DNA of 64,000 nucleotides from Antedon mediterranea (lineage: Eukaryota > Animalia > Echinodermata). Shown one piece after another: positions 1,997-40,719 of the stretch (position 1 is the stretch's first letter; every line of letters starts with the position of its first letter). Below the pieces are notes generated by a model that was not told where the DNA came from, did no database searches, and worked only from the letters and a program-made list of their open reading frames with translations. Position numbers and translations under genes: made by a program. The stretch is from positions 6,859,888 through 6,923,887 of the forward strand of contig NC_092676.1 of assembly GCF_964355755.1 (NCBI RefSeq). Reading direction: 5' to 3'.

Positions 1997-2210
1997 CTCT
2001 CTCCGATGATGTAGAATAACACAAAGTATAGTTTCTCTGTAACGTTAGCTTGCTACCAGGGAAGAGTGAGCGAATGAGTGAGTCTCACTCTTCCCTGTTT
2101 TGGTGGTTGCGTAGCGTATGCACGATATAATCCGTAGTTGACATCAACGGTTTTCAGATCTCAAATGATTCTGAACCCTGATACTAAATACAAATACCCG
2201 TTATGGCATT
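1997..2210 (-). other. Putative non-coding first exon of a third NLR paralog lying left of the window
   Basis: Homologous to 36803-37015 and 61722-61925, which sit upstream of the two DED exons; all three end in AG|GTTAGT on the minus strand. 5' boundary approximate. Confidence 0.5.
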
Positions 2211-2368
2211 GTAATAATCACAATAATAGATTCAACCAATGAAATATAAGCAAACAAACAACAATAACAAGATTTTAAAAGACCTGGATATATTTAACAG
2301 ATATAATACAAAGAACGTCCAACAATAACACACAAAATATTGTTAACAAAAGGAATGTTAACAGATTT

Positions 2369-5300
2369 GGCAGGGCATATCGTTTCCTTTTATAGACACG
2401 TACCAGAATATTCAAGGGTTAACAAACTTTATCATAACTGAATAGTAGGGTTCTCTTCGCTGATTGTATGAAAAATGATAAATGATAAAAATTAGGCTGA
2501 AAGAAAAATATGTTTAAATAAATTAGTTAGTGTCACGTATATGACCTACAGTAAGACCTAAGACTAATACACGATTATGGCAGGGCATATCGTTTCCTTT
2601 TATAGACACGTACCAGAATATTCCAGGGTTAACAAACTTTATCATAACTGAATAGTAGGGTTCTCTTCGCTGATTGTATGAAAAATGATAAATGATAAAA
2701 ATGAGGCAGAAGGAAAAATATGTTTAAATAAATTAGTTAGTGTCACGTATATGACCTACAGTAAGACCTAAGACTAATACACGATTATGGCAGGGCATAT
2801 CGTTTCCTTTTATAGACACGTACCAGAATATTCCAGGGTTAACAAACTTTATCATAACTGAATAGTAGGGTTCTTGTTGAACCCACAAATGTGAAAACGC
2901 CCACAAATGTGAAAACAACCACAAATGTGAAAACGCATCACCCACAAATGTGAAAACAACCACAAATATGAAAACGCATCACCCACAAATGTGAAAACAA
3001 CCACAAATGTGAAAACGCATCAACCACAAATGTAATAAACAGCGCCCACAAATGTGAAAACGATCATCGCCCACAAATGTGATAACGCCCACAAATGTAA
3101 AAAAAAATGAGAATTTTTCGGCCACAAATGTAAAAAAAAAAATCAGATCAAATTTAATGCTAGACTCAAACAATTTTGATCGAGGTACTACATTATATCA
3201 TGATTGTATTGAGTTGTTTCAATAATTGTTTGTTCACGATACGTCTGTTAGGGTCGTGGTTAACGCGTTGGATCATTATAATTTGCTGCTCATGCGCGCG
3301 ATATTTGCACGTTAACTCGTTTGTTTAATGAACGTAATAGTTCAAGACGATATTTGTTATTTGCTGCGCGCGTACACGATACTTCAAGGTCAAGGCCATG
3401 TTATATCATTGTTGCTTCTACTGTATGTGTGGTTGTTGGCTTACTATTATGTACGTATAGTTATAAGTCGATGTTCGATGTTTTTTTGCGCGTGCACACG
3501 ATACTAAAAGGTCAAGGTTAAATTGCTACTTGTATGTAGTGTGTGGTTATTAACTCGTTGGCTTACTGTTATGACTTCTAATGCTCATACAATTAGTGTT
3601 TCTTATAGGCATCTCCAATCAAGTGTAAGCCTACTATTAGTAGATAACATTATTTAATCGCATTGCAAATTTTGTTAGGTAATTCATGAAGCCAGTTTGT
3701 TCCTCATTAACAATACCGTTATACCTTGTACGTTGACTTATTTACTTATAATTATATTATACATAATTCTATTTCTTTAAATTGTCGAATATACGTTTGA
3801 TAAGTAAATCAGTTAAATTTTAATGCATTCAATAGGTAATATTATTCTCCGTATATCTTTATAATTATCCGCTAAAAATAGATATACAAATTAAACAATA
3901 AGCATCAGATTAAACCACGAATGTAAATTAATAGTAGTATAGTAGGAAGTTTTGTCCATTAGTATAATTGTTATAGATTTCATAGTATGTTTTCGTGACA
4001 AGTTTGATACTATCGTATCGTGTATTATATTTGTTTGGATATTGGTGTTACGGTATTATTCTATGTTACAATTTGTTTATCGCTCTAAAATAAAGAAATA
4101 TTCTTTTATTAGTTGTTCTTGCTCTAGCTCTTGTATTATTATCTTGTGGTTATAGTTTTGTAAAAAAATTGAACATTAGGAACTACTGCAATAATTGAAC
4201 GACGAGTATAGCATTGATCTTGTAGTATCGTGTACACCGAGCATCGACTTGGAGCTATAATACGTACATAATACTAATATAGTAAGCCCAACTGCACTTC
4301 AAGCAGCAATGATATATGACCTTGTAGTATCGTGCACGCGCACAAAAAAACATAGAATCGACCATCGACTTGGAACTATACGTACATAACAATAAGCCAA
4401 CGAGTTAACAACCACAAGTAGCAATAGTATATATGGCCTTGACCTTGTGGTATCGTGTACGCGCCCAAAAACATCGAATCGAGCATCGACTTGGAACTAT
4501 ACGTACATAACAGTATGCCAACGAGTTAATAACCACACACTACATACAAGTAGCAATTTAACCTTGACCTTGTTGTATCGTGTGCGCGCAAAAAAAAAAT
4601 ATCGAACATCGACTTATAACTATACGTACATAATAGTAAGCCAACAACCACACAGTAGAAGCAACAATGATATAACATGGCATTGACCTTGAAGTATCGT
4701 GCACGCGCGCAGCAAATAACAAATATCGTCTTGAACTATTACGTTCATTAAACAAACGAGTTAACGTGCAAATATCGCGCGCACGAGCAGCAAATGATAA
4801 TAATCCAACGTGTTAACGACGACCCTAACAGACGTATCGTGAACAAACAACTCAATACAATCATGATAATAATGTTTGTCTGAATCTAGCATTAAATTTG
4901 ATCTGATTTTTTTACATTTGTGGGCGAAAAAGTCTCTCTTGTTTTTACATTTGTGGGCGTTATCACATTTGCGGGCGATGATCGTTTTCACATTTGTGGC
5001 CGCTGTTTTCACATTTGTGGTTGATGCGTTTTCACATTTGTGGTTGTTTTCACATTTGTGGGTGATGCGTTTTCACATTTGTGGTTGTTTTCACATTTGT
5101 GGGTGATGCGTTTTCACATTTGTGGTTGTTTTCACATTTGTGGGCGTTTTCACATTTGTGGGTTCAACAGTTCTCTTCCTTCGCTGATTGTATGAAAAAT
5201 GATAAATGATAAAAATTAGGCTGAAGGAAAAATATGTTTAAATAAATTAGTTAGTGTCACGTATATGACCTACAGTAAGACCTAAGACTAATACACGATT

Positions 5301-5511
5301 ATGGCAGGGCATATCGTTTCCTTTTATAGACACGTACCAGAATATTCCAGGGTTAACAAACTTTATCATAACTGAATAGTAGGGTTCTCTTCGCTGAGTG
5401 TATGAAAAATGATAAATGATAAAAATTAGGCTGAAGGAAAAATATGTTTAAATAAATTAGTTAGTGTCACGTATATGACCTACAGTAAGACCTAAGACTA
5501 ATACACGATTA
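2369..5511. repeat. 210-bp tandem repeat, 4 units, third unit split by a foldback element
   Basis: ggcagggcatatcgtttcc starts at 2369, 2579, 2789 and ~5303. Confidence 0.95.
2875..5169. mobile_element. Non-autonomous foldback-type DNA transposon with ~700-bp modular TIRs
   Basis: TGTTGAACCC...GGGTTCAACA ends; 5-bp TSD GTTCT (2870-2874, 5170-5174); outer TIR domain of ccacaaatgtgaaaac tandem repeats; arms ~2875-3573 and ~4506-5169; neighbouring repeat units and copy B are empty sites. Confidence 0.93.
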
Positions 5512-5837
5512 TTCTACTCTCATCAAACATGAAATACACCAATAGCAAGGTGTTTACAAGTGCCACAGTGTGGTACTTAATTTCTCTTTAAATCGATTCC
5601 GAACGGATTCAAACTTTCTGAACAAAGACAAAAGTATGAAATATATACATAAAAAAACGAAAATAAAAAGTCGAAGATTCCAACATTTTGTTTATAAAGA
5701 CTCCAATCCTAAGAAAATTCCGTTTGAGAGAATCAATTGAGCTGTTGAATTACTACAAAAGCCAATCTTTGTGTTTATGGGCTTGTTATAGTTTTTCCTA
5801 AACTATGCTTCTAATGAAGCTCTGATTTTGCAGTATC

Positions 5838-6455
5838 AGTTCCATTTCACTGATCAATTGCATACGCTAGATCTCTCATATTTATCTAAGTGTTACTACT
5901 ATAGGATATTGAAATTAGAGAAGCCTGCTAGAATACGGATGATTTTAAAGGAAATATTGACTTCTGACATGTTATTTGTATAATTGTATCATGTAAATCG
6001 TGCATATCAAACTTCTCACGCAAGGTACCTTAGATAATAGGCCTGTAAATCCTGTGGTGCTGTAATACAATTGGTCTTGAACTTGCTCGCTTACTTTGCA
6101 ATATTAACAACAATAGCAGGAATGAAACGCTTGAGGTACAAATCAAATACCAGGGTCACTGTCAATAGTCCATGGTTATAGTAATAATCACAGATTCACA
6201 ATATTGAACGAATATCATTCAGATACAGACATTAATTTTTCTAATCAGAGTATTAGAGCAGAATAAAAGTAACATATCTTATTTACTAAAATTGCGATAT
6301 ATCATCATTATTATTCCTTAGACAAGTTTCATTTTTTAAAGCAGACCAGCAGTAACAGAATCACTTTTACGAATATGCGTCAACTAGTAAAATATCTATC
6401 TTTATGTTATCTCTTTGGAATTCTAACTTTGTCAATACATGCAACAGATGAGGAC
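5838..6455. repeat. Diverged ~600-bp copy of 329-911 (further copies ~35125-35680, ~37930-38550, ~58480-59160)
   Basis: Shared blocks such as catttcactgatcaat, cttctcacgcaaggtacctta, tgaaacgcttgaggtacaaatcaaatacc. Confidence 0.8.
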
Positions 6456-6522
6456 AATTTTACATTTTAACATAAAACCATTTTTAAATAGAATTTTGTT
6501 TAAACACATTATGGTCCTTGAT

Positions 6523-7495
6523 AATTCAATTCAATTCAATTCAAATCAACATTTATTTCTTCCACATAAAATAAGAACAAACATCCTTTTTTTTTTATTA
6601 AATGTTTAATCTTACTTTTTATTTATACTTGCTTGATTGATGAAAATAAATATGTAAATATCTTTTTTTTATTATTATTTTATTTTCTATATTTCATAAA
6701 ACAGTATACATTACTTAACTTGATTACAGTACATTACAAAGTAATACAAAATAATAATAAAGTAACATTTTCAAGTTACAAAACATATATATGGCTATTT
6801 TTATACATAAATATCAACACAGATTTCATTTTAACAAAAAAAAAAGAATGATGCAAAATAAAAGTCTAGCTATTTTTAAAAACAATGTACTTTTCAATTT
6901 CTTTATACCTCTCATATACCGATTTGAAGTGATTTATGTGAGGTTTTTGTTCGTTAACTTTGCAGTTATAAATATACAATTTTGCAATCAGTATTAAGTT
7001 ATTAATTGCATTGTTATTTCTATGATTTTCAATACCAAAACATATCCTTTCTTTATCTAAAGTCACTTTTCTTTTAAACTATTGTTCAATAATAACTTGT
7101 ATTTACCTCCACATGACATCAATTATTTTGCATTCCACGAACATGTGTATTAAAGTTTGTTCTTTTTCTAAACAAAATTCACAAATTGGTGATTCAACAA
7201 TTGATATATTATGTAGAAAAGAGTTAGTATAAATGATACGGTGAATAAATTTATATTGAAAGGTTTTAAGTTTTGTATTGATTGTGCATTTATGCAAAGT
7301 TGTGAATATCATATCCCATTGCAATTGTATAGTATCAAGTTCATTTTCCCATCTGGACTCGATTCTATCGGGCACTGTTGCATATTTTTTAACGAAATAA
7401 GAATACAAGTGTTTACAGCTTCTTTTTGTTTTCATCAATTTGTTTATTTTAGAATGTTCGATTATTAAATTTGATGGGTTTGTATCGGTGTTCTC
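6523..7495 (-). mobile_element. 5'-truncated L1/Tx1-like LINE 3' end (zf-RVT region) with (GAATT)n tail
   Basis: ORFs 7103-7438 and 6866-7066: KLKTFQYKFIHRIIYTN...CEFC...ETL-like QTLIHMFVEC; in-frame stop at 7103-7105; aattc repeats at 6523-6545. Confidence 0.85.
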
Positions 7496-8117
7496 AAATA
7501 TCCAATATAACTCATTTTAATGATTAAAACAAATTCAAACAAAAAAACCCTAAAGCCTATAGCAATGTGTTTTGTGTTTGTGGGCCTCCTTTTGTTATTG
7601 TTTCTCTCAACTATAATGAAATTTCACTTTTGCAAAGTATTAGTTCTATTTCACTGATCAATCAAAGATATGGTGTATTGTCTGGCTGGGCTCTGTATAT
7701 TCAATCGGTATGCTTTTTGAAATACAATTTATTCTTTCTGATTATGCTAGTATTGACTAAATAAACACTTTATATCACAGTTAGGCCGCAACTTATAACC
7801 GCTTAGAATTACTGTATATTGCAATTTTTACCAGGGATAGTAATATAAGCCTTTATACATTTCTTTTTTTTCCGTCAGTTGCAGCTCCGCCTTATCAATA
7901 TATATATATACTTATTGTTTTCACATTAAAACATGTTGGCATTGTAGTATTTTCTTAAAGTAATTCCAGGTGAGGAAAAGTCATTTTATACACATTTAAT
8001 ATTATAACCAATGTTTGTCCATTATTATTCAATGCGTCAATATGTTTTTAATAAATACAGAAATACTCCGCTAAAGCATTACATACATAACGTATGTTAA
8101 AATAATGTAACCTTTAG

Positions 8118-8286
8118 GATGTTAAATGCAAGTTTGATGCTAGCCTTGTAATTGTTATCACTGATACCGGTTACACAGATGTCCAGTCAGGCAGCGAAAC
8201 CGAACTAAAGAGTGCTGTAGCCACTGCTGGATCAATCTCAGTTGCAATGGGTACTAGCCACAAGTCATTTCAGCTCTACCATCAAG
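8118..8286 (+). pseudogene. Orphan cathepsin L-like (papain family C1A) exon
   Basis: tttag|GAT...CAAG|gtatt; translates DVKCKFDASLVIVITDTGYTDVQSGSETELKSAVATAGSISVAMGTSHKSFQLYHQG, matching the cathepsin L TDTG...LKxAVAxxGPxSVA...SFQxYxxG segment. No other cathepsin exons recognised. Confidence 0.8.
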
Positions 8287-8671
8287 GTATTATTTGTTTC
8301 TATCCCGATTTTCTTGTTCATGGTGAGGAAACCCAGTTCCAACAAGTCAAACGAATTATGTTTATATATTCATCCATATGTACGTGTCCTGTGGTTTTAA
8401 TAACACAACACAAGCCAGTTGACCAATCACGAGCTCACATTGCTTGTGATTGTTCAAATCAATTGCGTTAAGCTTACGTCATTGCCTTTCGTGTCTAGTG
8501 GAAACTAAGCATAATGCAGTCTCCAATAAAGTTTTGTTAAATGGCAGAAGAGTAGCAGTTTGTATCTTTATGTTTGTTCCTTAATTGCAATTATTTAAAT
8601 GTTTTATATATTATAACGTTATATGTATTTGTTTTAATTTTTGGATAAGTAAAGAACGAAGTTATAAATCC

Positions 8672-9128
8672 TATTTATTATCACTGTGCGCTACTGCTAC
8701 TAAAATGGGTATAATAGCGTACAGTGGTAAACTAATCATATTTATTATCACTGTGCGCTAGTGCTACCAACATGGTATAGTAGCGCACAGTGGTAAACTA
8801 ATCATATTTATTATCACTGTGCGCTAGTGCTACCAACATGGTATAGTAGCCCACAGTGGTAAACTAATCATATTTATTATCACTATGCGCAAGTTCTACC
8901 AAATGGGTATAGTAGCGCACAGTGGTAAACTAATCATATTTATTATCACTGTGCGCTAGTGCTACCAAAATTGATATAGTAGCGCACAGTGGTAAACTAA
9001 TCATATTTATTATCACTGTGCGCTAGTGCTACCAAAATGGGTATAGTAGCGCACAGTGGTAAACTAATCATATTTATTATCACTGTGTCATAGTGCTACC
9101 AAAATGGGTATAGTAGTGCACAGTGGTA
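8672..9128. repeat. ~66-bp palindromic (hairpin) tandem repeat, ~7 units
   Basis: Unit tttattatCACTGTGCGCTAgtgctaccaaaatgggtatagTAGCGCACAGTGgtaaactaatca; starts 8741, 8807, 8873. Confidence 0.95.
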
Positions 9129-9132
9129 GTTT

Positions 9133-9610
9133 GACGTCGTTCCGTTACTGTACCGTTATAGTATACGTTGTATTTACTTTTCAAAGCCTATTGTTGTCAC
9201 AGTATAGAAAACGTTCAGCTGACATGTATTATAATAAGCGTATTGTGTATACTATTACGCTACGTCTGTAGTTTTCCGTGATTAGACGTCGTTCCGTTAC
9301 AGTACCGTTACAGTATACGTTGTAGTTACTTTTCAAAGCTTATCGTCAAAGTATAGGAGACGTTCAGCATGTATAAGCGTATTGTGTATGCTATTACGAT
9401 ACGCATGTAGCTAGTTCACCCTGAATAGACGTCGTTCCGTTACTGTACCGTTACAGTATACGTTGTAGTTACTTTTCAAAGCTTATCGTCAAAGTATAGG
9501 AGACGTTTAGCATGTATAAGCGTATAGTGTATGCTATTACGATACGCCTGTAGCTAGTTCACCCTGATGATTAGACGCTTATCGTCAAAGTATAGAAAAC
9601 GTTCAGCTGA
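9133..9610. repeat. ~145-150-bp tandem repeat, ~3 units
   Basis: gacgtcgttccgttac at 9133, 9284, 9428; paralog at 41523-41900. Confidence 0.85.
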
Positions 9611-9683
9611 CAGCCATAAGCGTTTTGGAGTACTGAAAACGCTCTTTGAATATTATATCTAATATCATCATCCTCATCACTAA

Positions 9684-9886
9684 AGCCTGTTTTCCTGTCG
9701 ACGTTATTCGACGCTATCGTCCTTGGTCGTTAACAGTTCAACGACGATCGTTTGAAAACAATCAAGTTGAAATGATAACGATAGCGAGTACCCTTTCCTG
9801 TAAATCGTTTACATTTCAATGATTACGTAGGAGATCGCGATTATTGTTAACGATAGCGTCGAATAACGTCGACAGAAAAACATGCT
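9684..9886. mobile_element. PIF/Harbinger-type MITE
   Basis: ~40-bp TIR agcctgttttcctgtcgacgttattcgacgctatcg; TAA TSD at 9681-9683 and 9887-9889. Confidence 0.85.
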
Positions 9887-9890
9887 TAAA

Positions 9891-10052
9891 ATAATCATCA
9901 TCGTTGATCGTTCATCGTAGTCATCGTCATCATCATCATCATAATCGTCGTCATCATCATCAACGTCGTCTTCATCATCGTTGATCGTTCATCGTAGTCA
10001 TCGTTGTCATCATTATCATCATCATCGTCGTCATCATCATCATCATCATCAT
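9891..10052. repeat. (CAT/CGT)n microsatellite
   Basis: Direct inspection; shorter in copy B (~42185-42261). Confidence 0.9.
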
Positions 10053-11477
10053 GGTATTGTTGTATCTGTGTTACATACGTTTGGTTTCATTTGCTTTATC
10101 ATAAACCACGACATGATTCGTATACATTTAACAATTTAACAACATTGTGTGCAATCATTTCAATTTGTTTTTATTATCATTATTCAATCATAACTAATAA
10201 TAAAGTATATACGAACAAATATTCGTAAACATGAACAAACTACGCCCATTAACACGGCATACATGTAATGTAAACTTATTATTAGCTACTATACTGTACT
10301 GCTACTAACTACTACTACTATACTGTACTAAAGGTGTGTTGTGCCACTTCACGATAACTAAAATCTATTAATAAGTATAACATTGACCTATATAAAACCT
10401 TCTTAACAAGTACGTATTGAATTAATTTGTATACAAAGTTTTCTATACTGTGGATATTCGTTAAAAAAAAAACTAAACTATAACATATTTGCCTCTAACT
10501 ACATATTCCTGTATATTATACGATAACTTACATTCTTACTAAAGCTTATTCTTACTAACAGGCAAATTGTAACATATTATTACTCTGAGATCTGTGTGTG
10601 AACAAAAAAACATGAAAAATTAATGAAAACTTAGCGTAAATGTAGTAAAACGAGTACTGTAATATATAGTTTGCTAAAAAGAAATATTATTTCATGTAAA
10701 TACTCTATACAAGTATTACTATTCAGCATATAACACTAATATAACTATAATGTATACATTTTCTAATAATTATGCACATATGCATTATTATTGAATAAAG
10801 AAAAAATTATTGAAAAACGTATGCAGTTACATTATCAGTTATTATAATATAGTTTAATATAATATATAGTTATATAATGTTATAATTCACAATAATATTA
10901 TTGAACGTATTTAGGGCCTACACAACTACAATGTTTAGAACGATAGTAAACTACAATATCTACTGTACCGTCAATAATTAAATTGAGGGCGTAGTTTGTG
11001 TTATTAACTCGAACGCGTTCATTCAATTAACCCCATGAAGCATTTGCAAGTTGTATTTTTATTTAAAGTAATAATCATTTAAAATGATATTTCTGGTTCA
11101 TATTAACAAACAAAATGTATATAAAAAATAAATTAGAAATTGTTTTCTGGTTTTCTAAACGCTGTGCCTTAGTATTAGGCCTAATGCAAAATCATGTCAG
11201 TATTGAAAGCAACAAAACGTCTAGATATATTTAAATCTCCACTAAACTCCACAACTTCACGCCACGCATTTATGTCACTATTTTTTATATTATCAAAATC
11301 AGTATTACTGGGCAATAGTATCGTAATGTTGGGCAAGAAGTAAAATATGAGAGTGCATATTGTCAAAACGAAGTTGGCATGTTAAAATCATAATAGATTA
11401 TCTTTGTAACATCAAGTTTATTATTTTTACTTTAAGAATGTTTAGAAAGTGTGAAGAAGTAAAACAAAGATTAATCT

Positions 11478-11844
11478 AATGAATAATTAATGTGTGCATC
11501 ATGTAAAACGAGCTGGTTTAAAACTGCTTCATTGTATGATGCATTTCATTGAATAGGTCATTATGTAATATTGTCATGTCAATTTCATTGAAGTTGTTCA
11601 ACTTATTAAACAAATTCGGGTTTATAATATTTAGTACAAATGTCACATGGTAGTTTGAAATTAGGCATGTCGAGCTTAAGCAACTTTGGAAACTTGGTTA
11701 AGAAAGTACCCATTAAACTACCATCAATACTACTGATATAATCATTATAAATCGTCCAAGCGTAGATTATGTAGCTTAGGACACTTACTCATGAAAGTAC
11801 AAAGTAAAGCAACATCGATGTCACTAAAGTCATTTTTATGAATA
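11478..11844 (-). pseudogene. Frameshifted fossil LRR tail beyond the NLR-A stop codon
   Basis: Shifted frame reads LNIHKNDFSDIDVALLCTFMSKCPKLHNLRLDDL*, then YISSIDGSLMGTFLTKFPKLLKLDM in another frame; distal part resembles 43638-43770. Confidence 0.8.
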
Positions 11845-14800
11845 TTAAGCTTGCAATTGTAATTTCAATGTATTTCCTGAAAACATTCTCATCATTTCAT
11901 TCATTACATGACTTGTTAGTTTACAATCATGCATGTCAAGCTTAAGCAGCTTCGGAAACTTACTCAAAAAAGTACCTAGCAACGTACCATCTATGTCTCT
12001 GATATCATTGTTATAAATTGAAATCACTTGTAATTCTAACTCATCTCCTGAATACGCTCTCATCATCTTGTTCATTACGTCTCCTGATAGTTTACAATCA
12101 TACATATAAAGACCAGCAAGTTTAGGACACTTACTTAAGAAAGTACCAAGTAAAGCGCCATCAATATCACTGAAATCATTATTATAAATATTAAGTAATT
12201 GTAAGTCTGACTTATATCCTGAATACGCTCTCATCATTTCATTCATTACATTTCCTAATAGTTTGCATTCATGCATGTCAAGCTTAAGCAGCTTTGGAAA
12301 CTTGGTTAAGAAAGTACCCAGTAAACTACCTTCTATGTCTCTGATATCATTATTATACATTGAGATCACTTGTAAATCTAACTCTTCTCCTGAATACGCT
12401 CTCATCATCTTGTTCATTACGTCTCCTGATATTTTACAATCATACATATAAAGACCAGGAAGTTTAGGACACTTACTCAAGAAATTACCAAGTAAAGCAC
12501 CATCAATATCACTGAAATCATTATTATAAATATGAAGCAATTGTAAGTCTGACTTATCTCTTGAGTACGCTCTCATCATTTCATTCATTACATTTCCCGA
12601 TAGTTTGCAATCATGCATGCTAAGCTTTAACAGCTTTTGACACCTACTTAATAAAGTACCCAGCAACCTACCATCTATGTCACTGATATCATTATTATAA
12701 ATTGAGACCACTTGTAATTCTAACTCATCTCCTGAATACGCTCCCATCATCTGGTTCATTACGTCTCCTGATAGTTTACAATCATACATATAAAGACCAG
12801 GAAGTTTAGGACACTTACTTATGAAAGTACCAAGTAAAGCGCCATCAATATCACTGAAATCATTATTATAAATATGAAGCAATTGTAAGTCTGACGTATC
12901 TCTTGAATACGCTCTCATCATTTCATTCATTACATTTCCTGATAGTTTGCAATCATGCATTTCAAGCTCAAGCAACTTTGGAAACTTGGTTAAGAAATTA
13001 CCGAGTAAACTACCATCTATGTCTCTGATATCATTATTATAAATTGAGACCACTTGTAATTCTAACTCATCTCCTAAACACGCTCTCATCATCTTGTTCA
13101 TTACATTTCCTGATAGTTTGCAATCGTGCATGTCAAGCATAAGCAACTTTGGAAACTTGGTTAAGAAAGTCCCGAGTAAACTACCATCTATGTCTCTGAT
13201 ATCATTATTATAAATTGAGACCACTTGTAAATCTAACTCATCTCCTGAATACGCTCTCATCATCTTGTTCATTACTTCTCCTGATAGTTTACAATCATAC
13301 ATATAAAGATAAGGAAGCTTTGGGCACTTACTCAAGAAAGTACCAAGTAAAGCACCATCAATATCACTGAAATCATTATTATAAATATTAAGCAATTGTA
13401 AGTCTGACTTATCTCCTGAATACATTCTCATCATTTCATTCATTACATTTCCTGATAGTTTGCATTCATGCATGCTAAGCTTTAACAGCTTTTGACACCT
13501 ACTTAATAAAGTACCCAGCAACCTACCATCTATGTCACTGATATCATTATTATAAATTGAGACCACTTGTAATTCTAACTCATCTCCTGAATACGCTCTC
13601 ATCATCTGGTTCATTACGTCTCCTGATAGTTTACAATCATACATATAAAGACCAGGAAGTTTAGGACACTTACTTATGAAAGTACCAAGTAAAGCGCCAT
13701 CAATATCACTGAAATCATTATTATAAATATGAAGCAATTGTAAGTCTGACGTATCTCTTGAATACGCTCTCATCATTTCATTCATTACATTTCCTGATAG
13801 TTTGCAATCATGCATTTCAAGCTCAAGCAACTTTGGAAACTTGGTTAAGAAATTACCGAGTAAACTACCATCTATGTCTCTGATATCATTATTATAAATT
13901 GAGACCACTTGTAATTCTAACTCATCTCCTAAACACGCTCTCATCATCTTGTTCATTACATTTCCTGATAGTTTGCAATCGTGCATGTCAAGCATAAGCA
14001 ACTTTGGAAACTTGGTTAAGAAAGTCCCGAGTAAACTACCATCTATGTCTCTGATATCATTATTATAAATTGAGACCACTTGTAAATCTAACTCATCTCC
14101 TGAATACGCTCTCATCATCTTGTTCATTACTTCTCCTGATAGTTTACAATCATACATATAAAGATAAGGAAGCTTTGGGCACTTACTCAAGAAAGTACCA
14201 AGTAAAGCACCATCAATATCACTGAAATCATTATTATAAATATTAAGCAATTGTAAGTCTGACTTATCTCCTGAATACATTCTCATCATTTCATTCATTA
14301 CATTTCCTGATAGTTTGCATTCATGCATGCTAAGCTTTAACAGCTTTTGACACCTACTTAATAAAGTACCCAGCAACCTACCATCTATGTCACTGATATC
14401 ATTATTATAAATTGAGACCACTTGTAATTCTAACTCATCTCCTGAATACGCTCTCATCATCTGGTTCATTACGTCTCCTGATAGTTTACAATCATACATA
14501 TAAAGACCAGGAAGTTTAGGACACTTACTTATGAAAGTACCAAGTAAAGCGCCATCAATATCACTGAAATCATTATTATAAATATGAAGCAATTGTAAGT
14601 CTGACGTATCTCTTGAATACGCTCTCATCATTTCATTCATTACATTTCCTGATAGTTTGCAATCATGCATTTCAAGCTCAAGCAACTTTGGAAACTTGGT
14701 TAAGAAATTACCGAGTAAACTACCATCTATGTCTCTGATATCATTATTATAAATTGAGACCACTTGTAATTCTAACTCATCTCCTAAACACGCTCTCATC

Positions 14801-17800
14801 ATCTTGTTCATTACATTTCCTGATAGTTTGCAATCGTGCATGTCAAGCATAAGCAACTTTGGAAACTTGGTTAAGAAAGTACCGAGTAAACTACCATCTA
14901 TGTCTCTGATATCATTATTATAAATTGAGACCACTTGTAATTCTAACTCATCTCCTAAACAAGCTCTCATCATCTTGTTCATTACATTTCCTGATAGTTT
15001 GCAATCGTGCATGTCAAGCTCAAGCAACTTTGGAAACTTGGTTAAGAAAGTACCAAGTAAAGCGCCATCTATGTCTCTGATATCATTGTTATAAATTGAA
15101 ATCACTTGTAATTCTAACTCATCTCCTGAATACGTTCTCATCATCTTGTTCATTACGTCTCCTGATAGTTTACAATCATACATATAAAGACCAGGAAGTT
15201 TAGGACACGTACTTAAGAAAGTACCAAGTAAAGCGCCATCAATATCACTGAAATCATTATTATAAATATTAAGCAATTGTAAGTCTGACGAATCTCCTGA
15301 ATACGCTCTCATCATTTCATTCATTACATTTCCTGATAGTTTGCAATCATGCATGCTAAGCTTTAACAGCTTTGAAAACTTGGTTAAAAAAGTACCCAGT
15401 AAATTACCATCTATGTCTCTGATATCATTATTATAAATTGAGACCACTTGTAATTCTAACTCATCTCCTGAATACGCTCTCATCATCTGGTTCATTACGT
15501 CTCCTGATAGTTTACAATCATACATGTACAGTTCAAGCAGTTTGTGAAACTTACTCAAAAAAGTACCTAGCAACGTACCATCTATGTCTCTGATATCATT
15601 GTTATAAATTGAAATCACTTGTAATTCTAACTCATCTCCTGAATACGTTCTCATCATCTTGTTCATTACGTCTCCTGATAGTTTACAATCATACATATAA
15701 AGACCAGGAAGTTTAGGACACGTACTTAAGAAAGTACCAAGTAAAGCGCCATCAATATCACTGAAATCATTATTATAAATATTAAGCAATTGTAAGTCTG
15801 ACGTATCTCTTGAATACGCTCTCATCATTTCATTCATTACATTTCCTGATAGTTTGCAATCATGCATTTCAAGCTCAAGCAACTTTGGAAACTTGGTTAA
15901 GAAATTACCGAGTAAACTACCATCTATGTCTCTGATATCATTATTATAAATTGAGACCACTTGTAATTCTAACTCATCTCCTAAACACGCTCTCATCATC
16001 TTGTTCATTACATTTCCTGATAGTTTGCAATCGTGCATGTCAAGCATAAGCAACTTTGGAAACTTGGTTATGAAAGTACCGAGTAAACTACCATCTATGT
16101 CTCTGATATCATTATTATAAATTGAGACCACTTGTAAATCTAACTCATCTCCTGAATACGCTCTCATCATCTTGTTCATTACGTCTCCTGATAGTTTACA
16201 ATCATACATATAAAGATAAGGAAGCTTTGGGCACTTACTCAAGAAAGTACCAAGTAAAGCACCATCAATATCACTGAAATCATTATTAAAAATATTAAGC
16301 AATTGTAAGTCTGACTTATCTCCTGAATACATTCTCATCATTTCATTCATTACATTTCCTGATAGTTTGCATTCATGCATGTCAAGCTTAAGCAGCTTTG
16401 GAAACTTGGTTAAGAAAGTACCCAGTAAACTACCTTCTATGTCTCTGATATCATTATTATACATTGAGACCTCTTGTAATTCTAACTCTTCTCCTGAATA
16501 CGCTCTCATCATCTTGTTCATTACGTCTCCTGATATTTTACAATCATACATATAAAGACCAGGAAGTTTAGGACACTTACTCAAGAAAGTACCCAGTAAA
16601 GCACCATCAATATCACTAAAATCATTATTAAAAATATTAAGCAATTGTAAGTCTGACTTATCTCCTGAATACATTCTCATCATTTCATTCATTACATTTC
16701 CTGATAGTTTGCATTCATGCATGTCAAGCTTAAGCAGCTTTGGAAACTTGGTTAAGAAATTGCCCAGTAAACTACCATCTATGTCTCTGATATCATTATT
16801 ATACATTGAGACCACTTGTAATTCTAACTCATCTCCTGAATACGCTCTCATCATCTGGTTCATTACGTCTCCTGATAGTTTACAATCATACATGTACAGT
16901 TCAAGCAGTTTGTGAAACTTACTCAAAAAAGTACCTAGCAACGTACCATCTATGTCTCTGATATCATTGTTATAAATTGAAATCACTTGTAATTCTAACT
17001 CATCTCCTGAATACGTTCTCATCATCTTGTTCATTACGTCTCCTGATAGTTTACAATCATACATATAAAGACCAGGAAGTTTAGGACACGTACTTAAGAA
17101 AGTACCAAGTAAAGCGCCATCAATATCACTGAAATCATTATTATAAATATTAAGCAATTGTAAGTCTGACGTATCTCTTGAATACGCTCTCATCATTTCA
17201 TTCATTACATTTCCTGATAGTTTGCAATCATGCATTTCAAGCTCAAGCAACTTTGGAAACTTGGTTAAGAAATTACCGAGTAAACTACCATCTATGTCTC
17301 TGATATCATTATTATAAATTGAGACCACTTGTAATTCTAACTCATCTCCTAAACACGCTCTCATCATCTTGTTCATTACATTTCCTGATAGTTTGCAATC
17401 GTGCATGTCAAGCATAAGCAACTTTGGAAACTTGGTTATGAAAGTACCGAGTAAACTACCATCTATGTCTCTGATATCATTATTATAAATTGAGACCACT
17501 TGTAAATCTAACTCATCTCCTGAATACGCTCTCATCATCTTGTTCATTACGTCTCCTGATAGTTTACAATCATACATATAAAGATAAGGAAGCTTTGGGC
17601 ACTTACTCAAGAAAGTACCAAGTAAAGCACCATCAATATCACTGAAATCATTATTAAAAATATTAAGCAATTGTAAGTCTGACTTATCTCCTGAATACAT
17701 TCTCATCATTTCATTCATTACATTTCCTGATAGTTTGCATTCATGCATGTCAAGCTTAAGCAGCTTTGGAAACTTGGTTAAGAAAGTACCCAGTAAACTA

Positions 17801-20800
17801 CCTTCTATGTCTCTGATATCATTATTATACATTGAGACCTCTTGTAATTCTAACTCTTCTCCTGAATACGCTCTCATCATCTTGTTCATTACGTCTCCTG
17901 ATATTTTACAATCATACATATAAAGACCAGGAAGTTTAGGACACTTACTCAAGAAAGTACCCAGTAAAGCACCATCAATATCACTAAAATCATTATTATA
18001 AATATGAAGCAATTGTAAGTCTGACTTATCTCTTGAATACGCTCTCATCATTTCATTCATTACATTTCCCGATAGTTTGCAATCATGCATGCTAAGCTTT
18101 AACAGCTTTTGACACCTACTTAATAAAGTACCCAGCAACCTACCATCTATGTCACTGATATCATTATTATAAATTGAGACCACTTGTAATTCTAACTCTT
18201 CTCCTGAATACGCTCTCATCATCTTGTTCATTACGTCTCCTGATATTTTACAATCATACATATGAAGACCAGGAAGTTTAGGACACTTACTTAAGAAAGT
18301 ACCAAGTAAAGCACCATCAATATCTCTGAAATCATTATTATAAATATTAAGCAATTGTAAGTCTGACTTATCTCTTGAGTACGCTCTCATCATTTCATTC
18401 ATTACATTTCCTGATAGTTTGCAATCATGCATGCTAAGCTTTAACAGCTTTTGACACCTACTTAATAAAGTACCCAGCAACCTACCATCTATGTCACTGA
18501 TATCATTATTATAAATGAAAAGCTCTTGTAATTCTAACTCATCTCCTGAATACCCTCTCATCATTTCATTCATTACTCCACCAGTTAATTTGCAATTCTG
18601 CATGTAAAGTTTAAGCAAATTCGAAGACCTGCTCAAATAAGTACCAAGTAAATCAGCATCAATGTCATGAATATCATTATTCCCAATGTTAAGCAATTGT
18701 AATTGTAACTCATCTGTATCTGCATATACTCTAATAATTTCATTAACTTTCTCCCCAGATAAATTGCAATTAAACAAATTAAGTATAAGAAGTTTGGGAC
18801 ACGTGCTCAAGTAAGTACCAAGTAAAGCACCATTAACGTCTCTGATGTCATTATTCCCAATATAAATCTCCTGCAATTCAAACTTAACTGCTGCACAAAC
18901 CCCTGCCATTTCATTAATTACGACACCTGATAGTTTACAATCATGCATGTCAAGCTTAAGCAACTTTGGAAACTTGGTTAAGAAATTGCCCAGTAAACTA
19001 CCATCTATGTCTCTGATATCATTATTATACATTGAGACCTCTTGTAATTCTAACTCTTCTCCTGAATACGCTCTCATCATCTTGTTCATTACGTCTCCTG
19101 ATATTTTACAATCATACATATAAAGACCAGGAAGTTTAGGACAATTACTCAAGAAAGTACCAAGTAAAGCACCATCAATATCACTGAAATCATTATTAAA
19201 AATATTAAGCAATTGTAAGTCTGACTTATCTCCTGAATACATTCTCATCATTTCATTCATTACATTTCCTGATAGTTTGCAATCATGCATGCTAAGCTTT
19301 AACAGCTTTTGACACCTACTTAATAAAGTACCCAGCAACCTACCATCTATGTCACTGATATCATTATTATAAATTGAGACCACTTGTAATTCTAACTCAT
19401 CTCCTGAATACGCTCTCATCATCTTGTTCATTACGTTTCCTGATAGTTTACAATCATACATATAAAGACCAGGAAGTTTAGGACACTTACTCAAGAAAGT
19501 ACCAAGTAAAGTGCCATCAATATCACTGAAATCATTATTATAAATATGAAGCAATTGTAAGTCTGACTTATCTCCTGAATAGGCTCTCATCATTTTATTC
19601 ATTACATGACCTGATAGTTTACAATCATGCATGTCAAGCTTAAGCAGCTTCGGAAACTTACTCAAAAAAGTACCCAGCAACGTACCATTTATGTCACTGA
19701 TGTCATTATTAGAAATTGAGACGACTTGTAATTCTAACTTATCTCCTGAATACGCTCTCATTATCTGGTTCATTACGTCTCCTGATATACTGCAATTATT
19801 CATTAGCAATATTAGTAACTTTACAGATTCACGCAAAAAGGTACCTATTAAAGTACCATTAATTTTACTGAAATCATTATTTCCAATATCAAGCTTTTGT
19901 AATTGTAATTTAAAATTGTCTACAGCATACGCTTTGATGATGTTATTCATTACGTGTCCTGTTATTCGGCAATTACTCATGCTAAGTGTAAGCAACTTAG
20001 GGGCCCTACACAAGAAATTACCAAGTGAAGAACCATCAACCTCTCTCATGTCATTATGTCCAATATAGATCTCTTGTAATTTCATCTTCCCGCACTCTCT
20101 GGTCATTTTGTTCATTACGTCACCTGATATTTTGCAATCATTCATAAGAAATTTACTCAGGTTAGGACACTTACTCAAGAAATTACCCAGTAAAATACCA
20201 TCAATGTCACTTATATCATTATTGTCAATAAAAAGACATTTCAATTGTAACTCTTTTGCTGCATATGTTTCCATCATTGTATTAATTATTTTACCTGATA
20301 ATTTGCAATGACCCAGGTCAAGTATTTGCAATTTAGGAGACTTCATTATTAAAGTACTAAGTAAATTACCATCAATGTCACTGATATCATTATTCCCAAT
20401 ATAAAATTCTCTTAATTCTATCGTATCTCTTTCATATCTGTTTATGATTTCGTTCATTATGCCACCAGTTAATTTGCAATCATGCATCACAAGCTTGGAC
20501 ATTTTAAGAGATTTTCCCAAAACAGTACCCAGTAAAGTACTATCGATGTTACTAATATCATTTTTCCTAATATTAAACTGTTGAAGTCGGTACTCTCTTT
20601 TTGCGTACACTCTGTTCATTTCATTCTTATCTGAATGATCCTCTATTTCATTCATTTTTAGCTTATTAGGTTTACTAAAAAATGTACCAATTGAGGTACC
20701 GTCAATTTTACTGATGTCAATTTTCTCCGCATTATTCGCTTGTAAATAGGTCTTATCTGATAGATTGAAATCATTGAGGTCAACTATGCTTAGCTTTGGG

Positions 20801-23270
20801 GAGGTACTCCAGAAATTACCCAGCAAAGTGCCGCCAGTTATGTCACATATATCTTTATTTCCAATATTAAGCTCTTGTAATTGTAACTCATTTCTCTCAT
20901 TCAATTCAATCATTAATGTATTCAGTACTTCACCTGATAGATTACAATAATGCATGTCAAGTACACTCAGATTAGGAGACTTACTCAAGAAAGAACCCAG
21001 TAAATTTGCATCGATATCACTGATATCGTTGTTTGCAATATCGAGCACTTGTAATTCTGACTTTGGATACTCTCTCATCATTTTATTCATAACGTCACCA
21101 GACAGTTCACAGTCATGCATGCCAAGTTTAAGCAGCCCAGGAATCCTAGTCAAGAACTTCCCTAATAAATTACCATCAATGCCACTGATATTGTTTTTCT
21201 CGATACAAATCTCCTGTAATTTTAACTCATTTCCTTTATACGCGCATATCATTTCATTCAATGTGTGCCCCGATAGTGCGCAGTCATGCACGTCGAGTGT
21301 TAAAAGCTTAGGAATTGTGCTAAAAACGTTACCCAGTAACGTACCCTTTACGTCACTGAGATTATTTTTTGCTATATTAAGCATAAATATTTCCATACTT
21401 TCTTTACAGTACGTACTAATGTCATTCATTAGTTTACCTGAAAGATTACAATCGATCATATCAAATGACAGGTAGAAATTTACCGACGTCATTAATTCAT
21501 GAAGTAATTTGGCATCAATCCCATTGAGATTATTTTCGCTGATTATGAAACGGTTAAAATTCAGCTCACCGCCCATTTTAGACCATTCTGTAATCATAAC
21601 ATTCATTGCACCACCTGTTAGATTGTAATTATGTAAGTCAAGTGTATGCGTACAAAAATATACAATGTGTGCAAGGACATTTCCTCTACTATCAACAGAT
21701 AATGTATTACAAAATGTTCTCAAATCAAGTTCATTAAGATTCAAGATACTGAGTTGCATTACACGATCTATAAAATGCTCGCCAACAACAGCTAAATTTG
21801 AATTAAAGTAATCAATACATGCTTTTAATGATTTTAATACATCTGTGTATTGGTTTACTTTTGTGGGAATTTGGATTAAGGCATGTTTCACTTTTCCCCA
21901 ATGTTTATCGTTAACAAATTTCAAAAAATGATGTATCAAAGGACGATACGTTGATAAGTTATCTGTAACCCAATGCTGTAGTAATTTATCTGCATCAGCA
22001 CCAAGAAATTCAACTGCAAATATATATGCACTAATAAGATATTTAGATTTTTTTACATCGGTTGTACATTCATTTATCATATCTCCTCGTTCACAAAGTT
22101 TGTAAATATAAAATCCTACTAGTGATTCCAGTATTGATTTGTGTGTTGGCATGTAAATTTCAGGCTCCGAGTCAGATCTTAAAAGTGATGGTATTCTACA
22201 AACAAATCCTAGTTTAAATGCCAGCTTAACTAAATCATCTTCATCGTTCTTTTCAATTGAAAGTTGATTTTTTTTCAGGCTACTATACATACATTCTCCT
22301 AAGAACATCATAGCATCTACATACTTTTCTGGAATTTTTTCAAATATAGCAATTTTTTTTTGCTGTATCCCATTTTTTTTAATGTAATGATTCAGAATAC
22401 AACGGAAAATTTCTTTAAAGAGGTCAGCATTATTCGAAGGAAGGCGTCGTTCATCTTCCCAAATAATACAAATTGAGAGTAGAAACATAGGGTTTTTGCA
22501 CAATTCATTATGTTGCATCTCTGATACATTCTGGTCAATTTGTAATTCATGTATAAGGTCATGCCCCAATTCAGGGTTTTCAAAATAATTAAAATGGTTC
22601 TTAATATATTTCCCAATGCTATATCTGTTAAATCCTTTCACCGTCACATGTATATTACAGTCTTTTATGAATTCATCGATGTGTTCTGATCTTGAAGTAA
22701 GTAGCACAACACTCCTACCTAATAATTTTCCTCTAAAAAGATTTACCAAGCTTTTATTTTCAAAACGTAATTCATCTAATCCGTCTAATAACAGCACCAT
22801 TGTATCGTCATATTTCTTTATAAATTGTTTAATCAACTTTGGATTTTCTTCGAGACCTGTATCTAAATTGAAATCTTCCATATCAAGTTGTTCTTCAATC
22901 ACGTCAAAGATGCTGTTGTCTTTTTCAAAATCCCTTACGTTAAATAGAAAAACAATTTTACCTTTGAATGCGATAGGTTGCTTTTCAGTTGTTTTGTATG
23001 CCAAGTACCTTAACATGGTTGTTTTTCCGATGCCAGCCTCGCCTTCTATAAGAACTCTGCATCCAGGTGTGCTTTCTATAGTAGTTAATATGTCTGGCAA
23101 TGTTGTTGGTTGGTTTTTTCTTGTCTTATCATTTTCTATTATGAGGTCCAACTTGGTGAAGACGTCAATGTCGAGATTGTCCTTGCTATTCATTATTGAT
23201 GGTGTCAAATTTTTATACTCCTTCTGACACAGCATTTGTTGTCTTGCAAGCAGGTACTTTTCTATTTTTT
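11845..23270 (-). CDS. NLR-A terminal coding exon: NACHT NTPase + very long RI-type LRR array
   Basis: 3813-aa ORF; Walker A GEAGIGKTT, Walker B LLLDGLDE, LLTSR, LCKNPMFL, winged-helix THKSILE; 57-aa LRR pairs; phase-1 acceptor ttcatag|AA at 23270, conserved in the paralog. Confidence 0.95.
11850..19790 (-). repeat. Homogenised 171-bp coding minisatellite (~46 units) with 855-bp and 1368-bp higher-order repeats
   Basis: Diagnostic aagataaggaagctttgggcac at 13306, 14161 (+855 = 5x171), 16213 (+2052 = 12x171), 17581 (+1368 = 8x171). Confidence 0.95.
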
Positions 23271-23696
23271 CTATGAATATAAACAATTGAATTATGGCTG
23301 GGATTACATCACATTATATCACAGTATGCTTTGATAGTTATTGACATGATAATGTGAACTTTCTGACGAAGGTTTACATGGCGAGATTAAATGTTGATAT
23401 AAAGTTCACGGTACACCACCATAAAGGCCCTGGGCGTTTATTGGAGGGGCGTTTGTTCAGGCGTGAGTTTATTTGGGGTGTTTTAAATAAATACGTTAAT
23501 AATTATATTATTAGCAACAATTAATTCACTAATAAACAAAATGTTAAATTCCTACAGTAATATTACTCAAAATATAAAATAGCATTATTTAAATAATAAT
23601 TATTACTTATACAATGCTAGTAACCATCAATCACAACATCAACAACTGATATAAATACCGTCATTAGAATCGAGTGAATGAAATAATTTCTATCCC

Positions 23697-25369
23697 TTAT
23701 AACAAAGAATATATATCACAAGAATGAGTATTCCGCGATTTTTGCATGAGAAATTTGTAACAGAGAGCTCCAGTGAGTGATGCCCGCCCTCATAAGGGCG
23801 GATGTATACATACTAAATAAGACTTGATTTAATAGACATGATACATGTCACATTAAATAGAATTATGATGATAGTTTTTGCAATTGTAAACTATTTTATA
23901 ATACATATTTATTAACAAACTAGTGTTTATTCACTTTTACAGACAATTATTTACTAACATTAACGTTTGTATTAGTCATAGTCATATATACTTATACTTT
24001 ATTGTCCATTTAAAAAACAGAAATGTGATTTGAAAACTGGCAAAATACAAAAATATAAAATACAATTTACAAAAACACACACAAAAAGTTAAGAGGCTAA
24101 AAATTGTTAAAATTAGATAAAAATTATCGGTTACATTTTACCTTTGTACTCTGGAGTTATATAAGTGTATAGCATTAGGTACAAACGAGCACCTAAACCG
24201 TTTTGTTTTGGTATTAAGTGCACGTAGTCTTATGCCAGAATTCATGAGAGCAAATTGTTTGTGAAGAGGATGTGTTTCATCATCAATGATACTTTTTACT
24301 TTTTTTAACACATTTTCTTTATACAAGGATTCAACATCAGGTAAGTGCTCTCCTACTAGTCTAATTGCTCTATTTCCTATTCGATTAAGTTTAATTTTAT
24401 CTTTTTGCATTGTATTACCATAAAAACAAACATTACAAAAAAGTATTACACTGAGAATTACAGAGTTATAAAACAATTTAAGTATAGTTTTGTCAATTTG
24501 TAGGTACTTCATTTTTCTTAAAATAAACATCCTTTGGTTGGCTTTGCATGTGGCTTTATTTACATTATTTATCCAATTTAGCTTATTGTCAATTATACAA
24601 CCCAGATATTTGTACTCATTTACTACTTCAATCTCATTTTCATTTATAATCAGAGGTTCTAAGGGTTCTTTAATTTTCCTAAAATCAATTTGCATTTCTT
24701 TTGTTTTCTTTATGTTTAGTTTCAGGTTGTTATTGCAGCACCAGTGATAAAAATCACATCCTAGTTGTCTATAGCTTATAACATGCTAAGTTAGTTCACA
24801 AAAAAGGCCTAACACAGCAACACCAAAAATCAACGAATATTACTCAGCACGGCCTATTCTTTACCATTGCCGTGTACTACTGTACGCCCGGTAAATTAAG
24901 TATTGTTTTTATGATATAAATTAGTATAAAACACATGTTATTAATAGGAGAAAATGTTAGATGTCATTAACATTTATTTGTTTTACCAGAAACAAGTTAA
25001 ATATAGGAATATTATTAAACTATCCTTCGTGAAAACGCGTAAACACCAACACGCCCGGTCACGCTATCGTAGCGCCCGGTTGATAAATCAAACTGTTTAT
25101 ACGGCAGTTTTTACTAAATAAATTGCATAAAACGAACAATTAAATATTCAAATAGTATTTAACATAATGTTGGCATGTAGTTGATAACATTTTTATCATC
25201 GGAAAATACTCCGGTGGTCCAGCATTTGATTAGTGAAACCTTCACAAAAAGTTGTATACATCCCAGATACATCCACACTTATGGCGGCGCCCTACCACAT
25301 GGACAATATTACTGTTACAGGGAAAATCGCGGATTACTCAATCTTGTGATATATATTCTTTGCTTATAA
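23697..25369. mobile_element. Non-autonomous TIR element (~50-bp TIRs) in NLR-A intron, containing a nested LINE fragment
   Basis: ttataacaaagaatatatatcacaagaatgagtattccgcgatttt at ~23697 is the reverse complement of ~25323-25369; absent from the equivalent NLR-B intron. TSD not resolved. Confidence 0.7.
24010..24750 (-). mobile_element. 5'-truncated CR1-group (Rex1/Babar/L2-like) LINE, RT C-terminal region
   Basis: WCCNNNLKLNIKKTKEMQIDFR...EYKYLGCIIDNKLNW...HPLH...RFRCSFVPNAIHLYN (ORF 24138-24695). Confidence 0.85.
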
Positions 25370-28011: not shown

Positions 28012-28065
28012 CTTTACTGGAACTAGTTGTTTCAGCTGCATCTTTTTCATTTTTCTTACTATCAT
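28012..28065 (-). CDS. NLR-A linker micro-exon 2 (54 nt, phase 1-1; DDSKKNEKDAAETTSSSK)
   Basis: tttgtttctag|AT...AGTAAAG|gtaatt; open, frame-preserving. Confidence 0.7.
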
Positions 28066-28393: not shown

Positions 28394-28447
28394 CTTTACT
28401 CGTTGCTTTACCTTCATTGGCTTCAAGTTCTTTACTCTGATCAAGAT
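28394..28447 (-). CDS. NLR-A linker micro-exon 1 (54 nt, phase 1-1; DLDQSKELEANEGKATSK)
   Basis: tatttatttctag|AT...AGTAAAG|gtatat; same length and ends as micro-exon 2. Confidence 0.7.
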
Positions 28448-31116: not shown

Positions 31117-31645
31117 CTGTACTAAGTAGGCCGATTTCTTTCTGGGCTCGTTCCCCAAGAAGACTTGCAAACTCAGTTAACTCTTTTGGTAAAATGAGTC
31201 TCTTCTCCAACTCAAATACCACATCCCAGAGGCTTTTATGTGGATCTAGTCGATAATTTGCTGTAACCCTCCGTGTCGCAGCAGGAGATCCAGATTGTTT
31301 AACAGCCCGAAACAGTCGTTCTCGGTCTGGTTTCAACTTATTTTCACCAGTACATTTGATATTGTTATCTGTTATATACTGACGTACAAGATGTTCAGCA
31401 TCTTTTGGGCCGGTTAATCTGGTAATCTCCAACAAAAGGTTGACATCATTTGGTGTAATAACACCACAGCCACCTTCGCTATCGAGCTTGTTGAATAAAT
31501 CATGTGCAATGGTTTCTGCATCAGCAAGGTCTCCTAGTTGCAGATGATCACCTAGGCAAAATCTCAACAATTTGTAGTCTTCGCCTTCATAACACTTACT
31601 AAGTTGGGCTTTCAACCCTCTAAACTTACTCTCAAGGTCTGACAT
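31117..31645 (-). CDS. NLR-A first coding exon: tandem death-effector-domain-like (death fold) module
   Basis: FRGLKAQLS...DYKLLRFCLGD...HDLFNKLD...ITPNDVNLLLEI DED pattern plus second helical repeat; acceptor tttttgcag at 31666, phase-1 donor ACAG|gtatgt at 31117. Confidence 0.8.
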
Positions 31646-37015: not shown

Positions 37016-37174
37016 TGTAATAATCACAATAATAGATTCAACCAATGAAATATAAGCAAACAAACAACAATAACAAGATTTTAAAAGACCTGGATATATT
37101 TAACAGATATAATACAAAGAACGTCCAACAATAACACACAAAATATTGTTAACAAAAGGAACGTTAACAGATTT

Positions 37175-39473: not shown

Positions 39474-39474
39474 T

Positions 39475-40715: not shown

Positions 40716-40719
40716 ATCC

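Follow-up and report, generated by a model that had tools for sequence, protein, structure and literature searches.

A long array of recombining leucine-rich repeats on a crinoid NACHT protein varies preferentially at its predicted concave face

Introduction

How receptor diversity arises in invertebrates, which do without adaptive immunity, is a long-standing question. Repeat shuffling has been worked out in fungi and receives merely passing mention for animals. The question is raised in concrete form by a stretch of 64,000 nucleotides from the feather star Antedon mediterranea, a crinoid (contig NC_092676.1 of assembly GCF_964355755.1, positions 6,859,888 to 6,923,887; hereafter, the window). 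One of its genes, termed G1, carries a long tandem array of leucine-rich repeats (LRRs); a tandem paralog, G2, is present in the same window. In an initial annotation, the array had been read as a combinatorial cassette code, in which an almost fixed scaffold exposes variable β-strand residues under diversifying selection and unit shuffling. Does the variation indeed reside on the predicted binding face, do the units exchange sequence, and is variety favored there or only tolerated?

Results

The array belongs to an NLR gene

The region under study makes up the 3′ part of a crinoid gene of predicted DED-NACHT-LRR type, i.e., of a NOD-like receptor (NLR). The array sits within a minus-strand frame that is open from 23313 to 11845 (all positions are those of the window), and a single coding exon of 11.4 kb (11845-23270, minus strand; acceptor AG at 23272-23271) comprises the NACHT domain, a helical region, and all LRRs. 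The NACHT domain (22591-23055, minus strand) was recognized by PF05729 with an E-value of 2.6e-19 (70 bits versus a cut-off of 26.7). It also gave weak phmmer matches to 5irm, NLRC4 (5aj2), and NLRP1 (7crw), and its P-loop and Walker B regions aligned to 5irm, which we take to be a NOD2. The C-terminal LRRs were identified by a Pfam LRR_4 match, in addition to the model and fold matches described below. Farther upstream lies a DED-like exon encoding a putative N-terminal death-fold effector (31117-31645, minus strand; GT donor in phase 1). Its Pfam DED match (E = 3e-4) is under the curated cut-off, which is exceeded by the relatives P0015 and P0025; it aligned to the N-terminus of another homolog, P0003, with an E-value of 9e-46. 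Two linker exons on the minus strand, of 36 bp (28412-28447) and 54 bp (28012-28065), have AG/GT ends and agree with the gene model P0024. The splice phases of all these exons are compatible, and P0024 joins the DED-like exon. This model, an uncharacterized A. mediterranea protein of 3951 aa, is the public model of G1: the last 3808 residues of G1 are identical in it. P0024 begins within the DED exon, the first half of which it lacks so that only the 3′ part is kept, and an intact start exists upstream; it may be incomplete or an alternative form. Taken together, the NLR architecture of G1 is virtually certain. In run X5, whose RNA origin is only a guess, one contig was exact over 22984-23272 and departed at the predicted acceptor, another contained intron sequence, and the DED region was covered patchily, in 23 of 30 bins; this was not counted as evidence of expression.

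A homogenized array of two master types

Tandem-repeat finding delimited a 171-bp period at 11773-19787 (46.8 copies), and a profile search returned 58 unit matches, 55 of them nearly full length. The exon thus encodes ∼57 two-LRR units, corresponding to ∼110 LRRs. Unit number and order are those of the assembly. The homogenized part (11926-19794, minus strand) consists of 45 units of 57 aa, each a pair of a 28- and a 29-residue LRR, plus one unit of 58 aa; older, divergent units (19795-21627, minus strand) precede it in the reading direction, several of which have their nearest neighbor in other genes. Of the 45 units, 31 are distinct. Two master types, A and B, can be told apart, which differ at 36 bases and mostly alternate along the array; DNA identity is 0.90 within A, 0.94 within B, and 0.76 between the types. 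At the amino acid level, mean pairwise identity over the 45 units is 0.74; the median identity of a unit to its nearest neighbor is 0.98, neither figure being the published T-REKS measure of internal conservation. Two exact duplications on the minus strand are embedded in the array, one with a 5-unit (855-bp) period and 1281 identical bases (12745-14880), the other with an 8-unit (1368-bp) period and 1194 identical bases (15437-17998). These blocks probably reflect recent block expansion, assembly error being ranked as less likely. Units 15-17 (18424-18939) are old, divergent units stranded within the homogenized array, with 48 of 171 bases separating unit 15 from its nearest neighbor.

The array ends in a partial unit with a frameshift and a stop, behind which three-frame reading revealed decayed repeat relics (11644-11925, minus strand), the part at 11644-11752 matching the array at 84%. 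No capping repeat distinct from the array was seen in this reading of 11644-11925. As both G1 (by frameshift) and G2 (by an insertion) break off inside the array, the chain appears to tolerate an open end. Within the array, stop alleles were absent, although ∼7 were to be expected if selection were lacking (P = 0.001), which indicates that it is maintained as coding sequence.

Units exchange sequence within each gene

The compatibility of variable sites was clustered along the unit in a test akin to the pairwise homoplasy index (p = 0.005 for G1 and 0.0002 for G2), and the four-gamete minimum was 14 intervals for G1 and 12 for G2, numbers that repeated mutation can inflate. When units were painted by their A- and B-type bases, every A unit preceded by another A unit (24, 32, 38, 39, 44, and 49) had a start of the B type. 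Other A units carried B patches in their second half (26, 34, 37, and 55; 12, 19, 41, 46, and 51), and B units carried A patches (22, 30, 42, and 47). Such a mosaic would be the expected trace of out-of-register crossing-over plus short conversion tracts in an array of A-B dimers. Exchange between units is therefore highly probable, and the proposals that half-units recombine into mosaics and that units are shuffled were borne out, by the painting and, for the latter, by the block duplications and the recombination test as well. What went too far was the notion of a combinatorial code: there are two linked master types with patchy exchange, and free combination of strand faces was rejected, since only 16 of 80 possible pairs occur where 26 would be expected under random pairing. 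Along the G1 array, these 16 face signatures are arranged into 26 distinct adjacent face pairs among 43.

Among 253 distinct units from 18 proteins, 195 had their nearest neighbor within their own gene. G1 units differed from the nearest G2 unit at 37-53 of 171 bases, and no recent exchange between the two arrays was seen in this unit nearest-neighbor comparison. Each array has, thus, been homogenized separately.

Variable residues cluster on the predicted concave face

In an AlphaFold prediction of eight units (predicted local distance difference test [pLDDT] 87.7, predicted template modeling score [pTM] 0.82), residues 24-28 and 52-56 of each unit form strands, and residues 5-14 and 37-46 form helices. 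The strands are spaced by 28 and 29 residues, as in alternating 28/29-residue strand-helix repeats. Residues 24, 26, 28, 52, 54, and 56 alternate with hydrophobic ones, which makes them the outward strand positions; their assignment to the concave face follows from the predicted model and the LRR register. The best fold matches were ribonuclease inhibitors (Z 31, root-mean-square deviation [rmsd] 6.2-7.2, 444-448 residues aligned) and NLRPs, several of the top ones being oocyte lattice NLRPs. A model of 40 LRRs retained the local fold (pLDDT 78) without a confident global shape (pTM 0.47). Owing to the curvature of ribonuclease inhibitor-type repeats, a chain of the full length would presumably be unable to close into a flat ring.

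All eleven strand motifs listed in the initial annotation are present and fall on the predicted strands (24-28 and 52-56). The seven second-strand motifs cover 35 of the 45 units and the four first-strand motifs 29; two more common first-strand variants (in seven and four units) were absent from that list. For the variation tests, 28 core units of G1 were used, after removal of duplicates, of the divergent units 10, 15, and 17, and of unit 16 with its 58 aa. For G2, 17 units remained after dropping units 10, 11, 26, and 30; a set of 21, including four units behind the insertion, was used in the recombination test and in the permutation test of the eight positions that had been named as variable. 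At these eight positions the excess was confirmed (permutation p = 0.007-0.017 in G1; 0 of 20000 permutations in G2), and a comparison of the six strand sites of G1 with random sets of six from 33 polar or exposed sites gave 143/20000. Positions 52 and 54 of G1 each hold five residues. The claim that variation is concentrated on exposed strands is, thus, correct per site and not in sum: of 58 extra residues in G1, the eight positions account for 15 and 21 polar convex or loop sites for 28, so that the convex side harbors about half of the variants. The scaffold is also less rigid than had been stated, with only 23 of 57 positions invariant among the 28 distinct core units, and with a 21:21 split between two residues at position 33, which had been given as fixed.

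The core is constrained and the strand face is released

Selection was tested on the distinct units of the two window genes, at the DNA level. In a codon model with preset site classes, the ratio of nonsynonymous to synonymous rates (ω) in G1 was 1.04 at the six outward strand sites, 0.45 at polar convex sites, and 0.16 at hydrophobic sites; the corresponding values in G2 were 1.84, 0.52, and 0.20. Across estimates, strand-site ω spanned 1.0-1.3 in G1 and 1.8-1.9 in G2. The difference between strand and convex sites was significant in G1 (p = 0.002) and in G2 too, and strand-site ω of G2 differed from 1 with a nominal p of 0.017, obtained on a single tree that ignores recombination. The core is under purifying selection, and the face has escaped the purifying constraint acting on the other parts of the unit.

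The pattern recurs in related crinoid proteins

A search with the N-terminal part returned 21 matches; the best 16 were models from Antedon and Anneissia (E = 3e-89 or better), the other five being far weaker. The NACHT-LRR models from A. mediterranea (P0003, P0008, P0013, P0014, P0018, and P0024) and from Anneissia japonica (P0004-P0007, P0009-P0012, P0015-P0017, P0025, and P0026) are all uncharacterized; the crinoid models belong to the same family and have the same unit as G1. G1 has the highest unit number among those counted (58 profile matches versus 40 or fewer), and the relatives from the second species also have long arrays. A further NACHT-LRR match of 6487 aa, P0027, was rejected as a family member, as it had only 11 partial unit matches. 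A cluster of at least five similar units was present in 13 of the 18 proteins examined, and residue variety was higher at concave than at polar convex positions in all 13. The eight most variable positions across the family (52, 54, 51, 24, 23, 26, 56, and 28) are all concave. With G1 and G2 left out, strand sites exceeded polar convex sites in 11 of 11 arrays, individually at p < 0.05 in 8 of them. In P0003 and P0017, single strand positions hold six to nine residues on a scaffold that is otherwise nearly uniform. There is, accordingly, little doubt that the concave bias is real.

The paralog and the flanking DNA

G2 shares the layout of G1 (46464-58222). A NACHT domain and ∼30 separately homogenized units are encoded at 46464-53527 on the minus strand, and tblastn located a DED-like exon at 57716-58222 on the same strand (Pfam DED E = 1e-5, under the cut-off). 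Within its array, G2 is cut by a 974-bp insertion (45493-46466) that has short terminal hairpins and a target duplication of 9 bp and resembles non-autonomous Academ-type DNA transposons; behind it, G2 units resume and then decay.

For the most part, the flanks behind G1 (1-11517) and G2 (34803-43678) agree at 84-96%, more than the genes themselves (76% in the NACHT region and ∼70% in the arrays). This suggests recent unequal exchange or conversion between the two tandem genes, a process by which G1 could also be lost or gained. Duplicated along with the flanks are fragments resembling long interspersed elements (zf-RVT matches at 7106-7516 and 38951-39490) and several minisatellites with periods of 210, 67, 143, and 41 bp; together, these repeats were noted at 6866-7516, 38948-40342, and 24138-24785. 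A fragment of a papain-family protease lies on the plus strand at 8118-8471 (PF00112, E = 6e-8). In run X1, six contigs matching G1 without difference (19800-23728) had depths of 145-166, and pieces with difference counts fitting G2 (52162-53088) had depths of 269-272; in run X8, which bears another organism code, both genes were near 150-177. Depth is no copy number, and the DED region shows several near copies, so that this is a hint that G1 may be on one haplotype only.

Discussion

What could give rise to such an array, and to variety at just these positions? In the account that we consider probable, the units of this crinoid DED-NACHT-LRR gene are block-duplicated and recombined in the germline, and inner-face residues vary more, likely because new binding surfaces are favored. 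An ancestral A-B dimer (342 bp) would have been amplified, after which unequal crossing-over and gene conversion would duplicate blocks and recombine units. Out-of-register exchange would generate the A-after-A units with B-type starts and the short patches of the other type. Unit exchange would keep the scaffold uniform and, at the same time, alter length and order, and a new face residue spreading through the array would gain new neighbors and, therewith, create many different patches. A single solenoid could in this way offer many different local binding patches. The protein itself would be a cytosolic sensor in which a death-fold effector and a NACHT switch are followed by a very long solenoid of LRRs. 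As assumed from NLR biology, ligand binding would release the NACHT switch, leading to DED clustering and recruitment of a caspase or an adaptor. A role in immune sensing is likely.

Whether positive selection drives the concave bias is a closer call, and we incline only slightly toward it. Of the original proposal, the concave-face bias is upheld in G1, G2, and the family; the diversifying selection finds no statistical support in G1, where ω above 1 at the strand sites was not significant (p = 0.87). Several further results weigh against selection for variety. In neither G1 nor G2 was the site model M2a better than M1a, and no class above 1 emerged. Tree-free counts of new alleles within type, pooled over the two genes, gave 1.4-1.5 (p = 0.08-0.12, not significant), and by such counts the polar convex sites of G1 likewise come out close to 1 (0.9-1.0). 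With the cluster threshold set to 80%, the direction held in seven of seven other arrays, with significance in only three of them and p = 0.18 for G1; moreover, the crinoid arrays are related and, hence, not independent. In a rival account, the same recombination would operate in the absence of selection for variety; the residues that point outward from the strands would be simply the most tolerant sites, and the array would drift through neutral turnover of its repeats under a conserved core. A strand-site ω of about 1 in G1, the lack of a site class above 1, and the share of the convex sites, about half of the extra residues, are in keeping with such drift, as is the fact that both genes end by breaks within the array, which makes length look loosely constrained. 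Neutral drift would not readily explain, however, why convex sites of equal polarity stay at 0.45-0.52 when the strands of G2 reach 1.8-1.9, nor why P0003 and P0017 accumulate so many residues at single strand positions of a nearly uniform scaffold, and we regard it as unlikely.

About 110 LRRs would far exceed the need of a single ligand, the 40-LRR model has no confident global shape, and oocyte lattice NLRPs are among the top fold matches, all of which would suit a degenerating copy or a long solenoid with a structural or scaffolding role, in which length matters more than surface identity. This is improbable in view of an intact NACHT domain with a death-fold exon, membership of a multi-copy family, concave-biased variation, and purifying selection against stops. 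It is still less probable that the array is in part an assembly artifact in which the exact 5- and 8-unit blocks were over-expanded. Such repeats are considered unreliable without long reads in the portion of PMC12222747 available to us, the order of the array is known from the assembly alone, and the blocks do contain 1194 and 1281 identical bases. Yet 31 distinct units survive the removal of duplicates and were the only ones tested, the frame is open over 11.4 kb, relatives from a second species carry long arrays, and contigs of run X1, which may be the source sample, match the non-array part of the exon without differences. The repeat relics directly behind G1 and G2 could conceivably serve as donors if unit cassettes were somatically assembled, or converted, into different receptors in each cell. 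That hardly seems credible with a complete open frame that has all units in place, with no recent exchange between the G1 and G2 arrays, and with constrained face pairing. Selection for new binding surfaces on a germline-recombined array, thus, remains the reading that we prefer.

The variable lymphocyte receptors (VLRs) of lampreys, to which the array had initially been compared, are extracellular, have short LRRs, and are somatically assembled from cassettes that flank an incomplete germline gene. G1 shares with them a variable concave LRR face. It shows no extracellular, short-LRR, or flanking-cassette-assembly feature, and the parallel fails on mechanism, as the germline reading frame of G1 is complete (11.4 kb). 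A closer parallel is offered by the fungal HNWD NLRs, for which concerted evolution, repeat reshuffling, and selection at a few surface residues are reported in the accessible parts of PMC1805685 and PMC4986451. Like fungal NLRs of high internal conservation (HET-D and HET-E of Podospora among the HNWD proteins, and those with ANK or TPR repeats; described, as far as the excerpts go, in PMC1805685, PMC4986451, PMC12222747, and PMC13449251), G1 combines a NACHT domain with near-identical C-terminal repeats. It exhibits three of five HNWD-like features, namely near-identical repeats, concerted evolution with shuffling, and hypervariable sites on the (here predicted) binding face. Unlike the HNWD proteins, it has LRRs rather than WD40, ANK, or TPR repeats, ∼57 units rather than ∼11, two linked master types, and, in the comparison of G1 with G2 units, no sign of recent exchange between paralogs.

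Among animal proteins, the 171-bp unit with alternating 28- and 29-residue LRRs is shared with vertebrate NLRPs and ribonuclease inhibitor; in the section of PMC6642158 at hand, human NLRP3 has one such 28/29-residue unit per exon. In G1, by contrast, all units are in one exon, are homogenized, and stand behind a DED instead of a PYD. Since the G1 model deviates from ribonuclease inhibitor by 6-7 Å rmsd at 14% identity, the shared 57-residue period does not by itself imply descent from one ancestor. NLRC5, too, is a NACHT protein with a very long series of LRRs, but it is a transcriptional regulator with 27-38 LRRs (according to the excerpted text of PMC11755879), compared with ∼110 in G1. Candidate receptors of algae and zebrafish combine repeat shuffling or gene conversion with diversification, as does G1; going by the partial accounts, however, the algal repeats are encoded one per exon, and in zebrafish the selected part is B30.2, the LRRs being described as not very variable. 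Internally conserved repeats are enriched in NLR-like proteins across life, and the mechanism apparently operates also in animals, as stated in the part of PMC13449251 that could be consulted. No published description of crinoid NLR repeat arrays was found among matches judged mostly from listings, and Fig. 8c or the supplement of PMC13449251 may name an echinoderm example. New here is an intronless two-type array of ∼110 LRRs on an animal NLR, in a pattern common to the crinoid family.

The overall shape of a chain of ∼110 LRRs is a structural question in its own right, and variable faces on a near-constant scaffold are a natural library for binder design. For the question raised at the outset, the crinoid family provides a tangible example from animals: its unit is simple, six positions lend themselves to testing, and two species together supply at least 18 related gene models. 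More tentatively, the intronless arrays of this giant DED-NACHT-LRR family may act as germline diversity generators, in which unequal exchange makes unit number and order differ from one individual to the next, and six residues of the inner face, under positive selection, turn each chain of ∼110 LRRs into a multi-turn solenoid with dozens of different patches. If so, which we consider possible rather than likely, they would be an animal equivalent of the repertoire mechanism of fungal HET-E, three to four times longer than NLRC5, with whole genes possibly present or absent between haplotypes.

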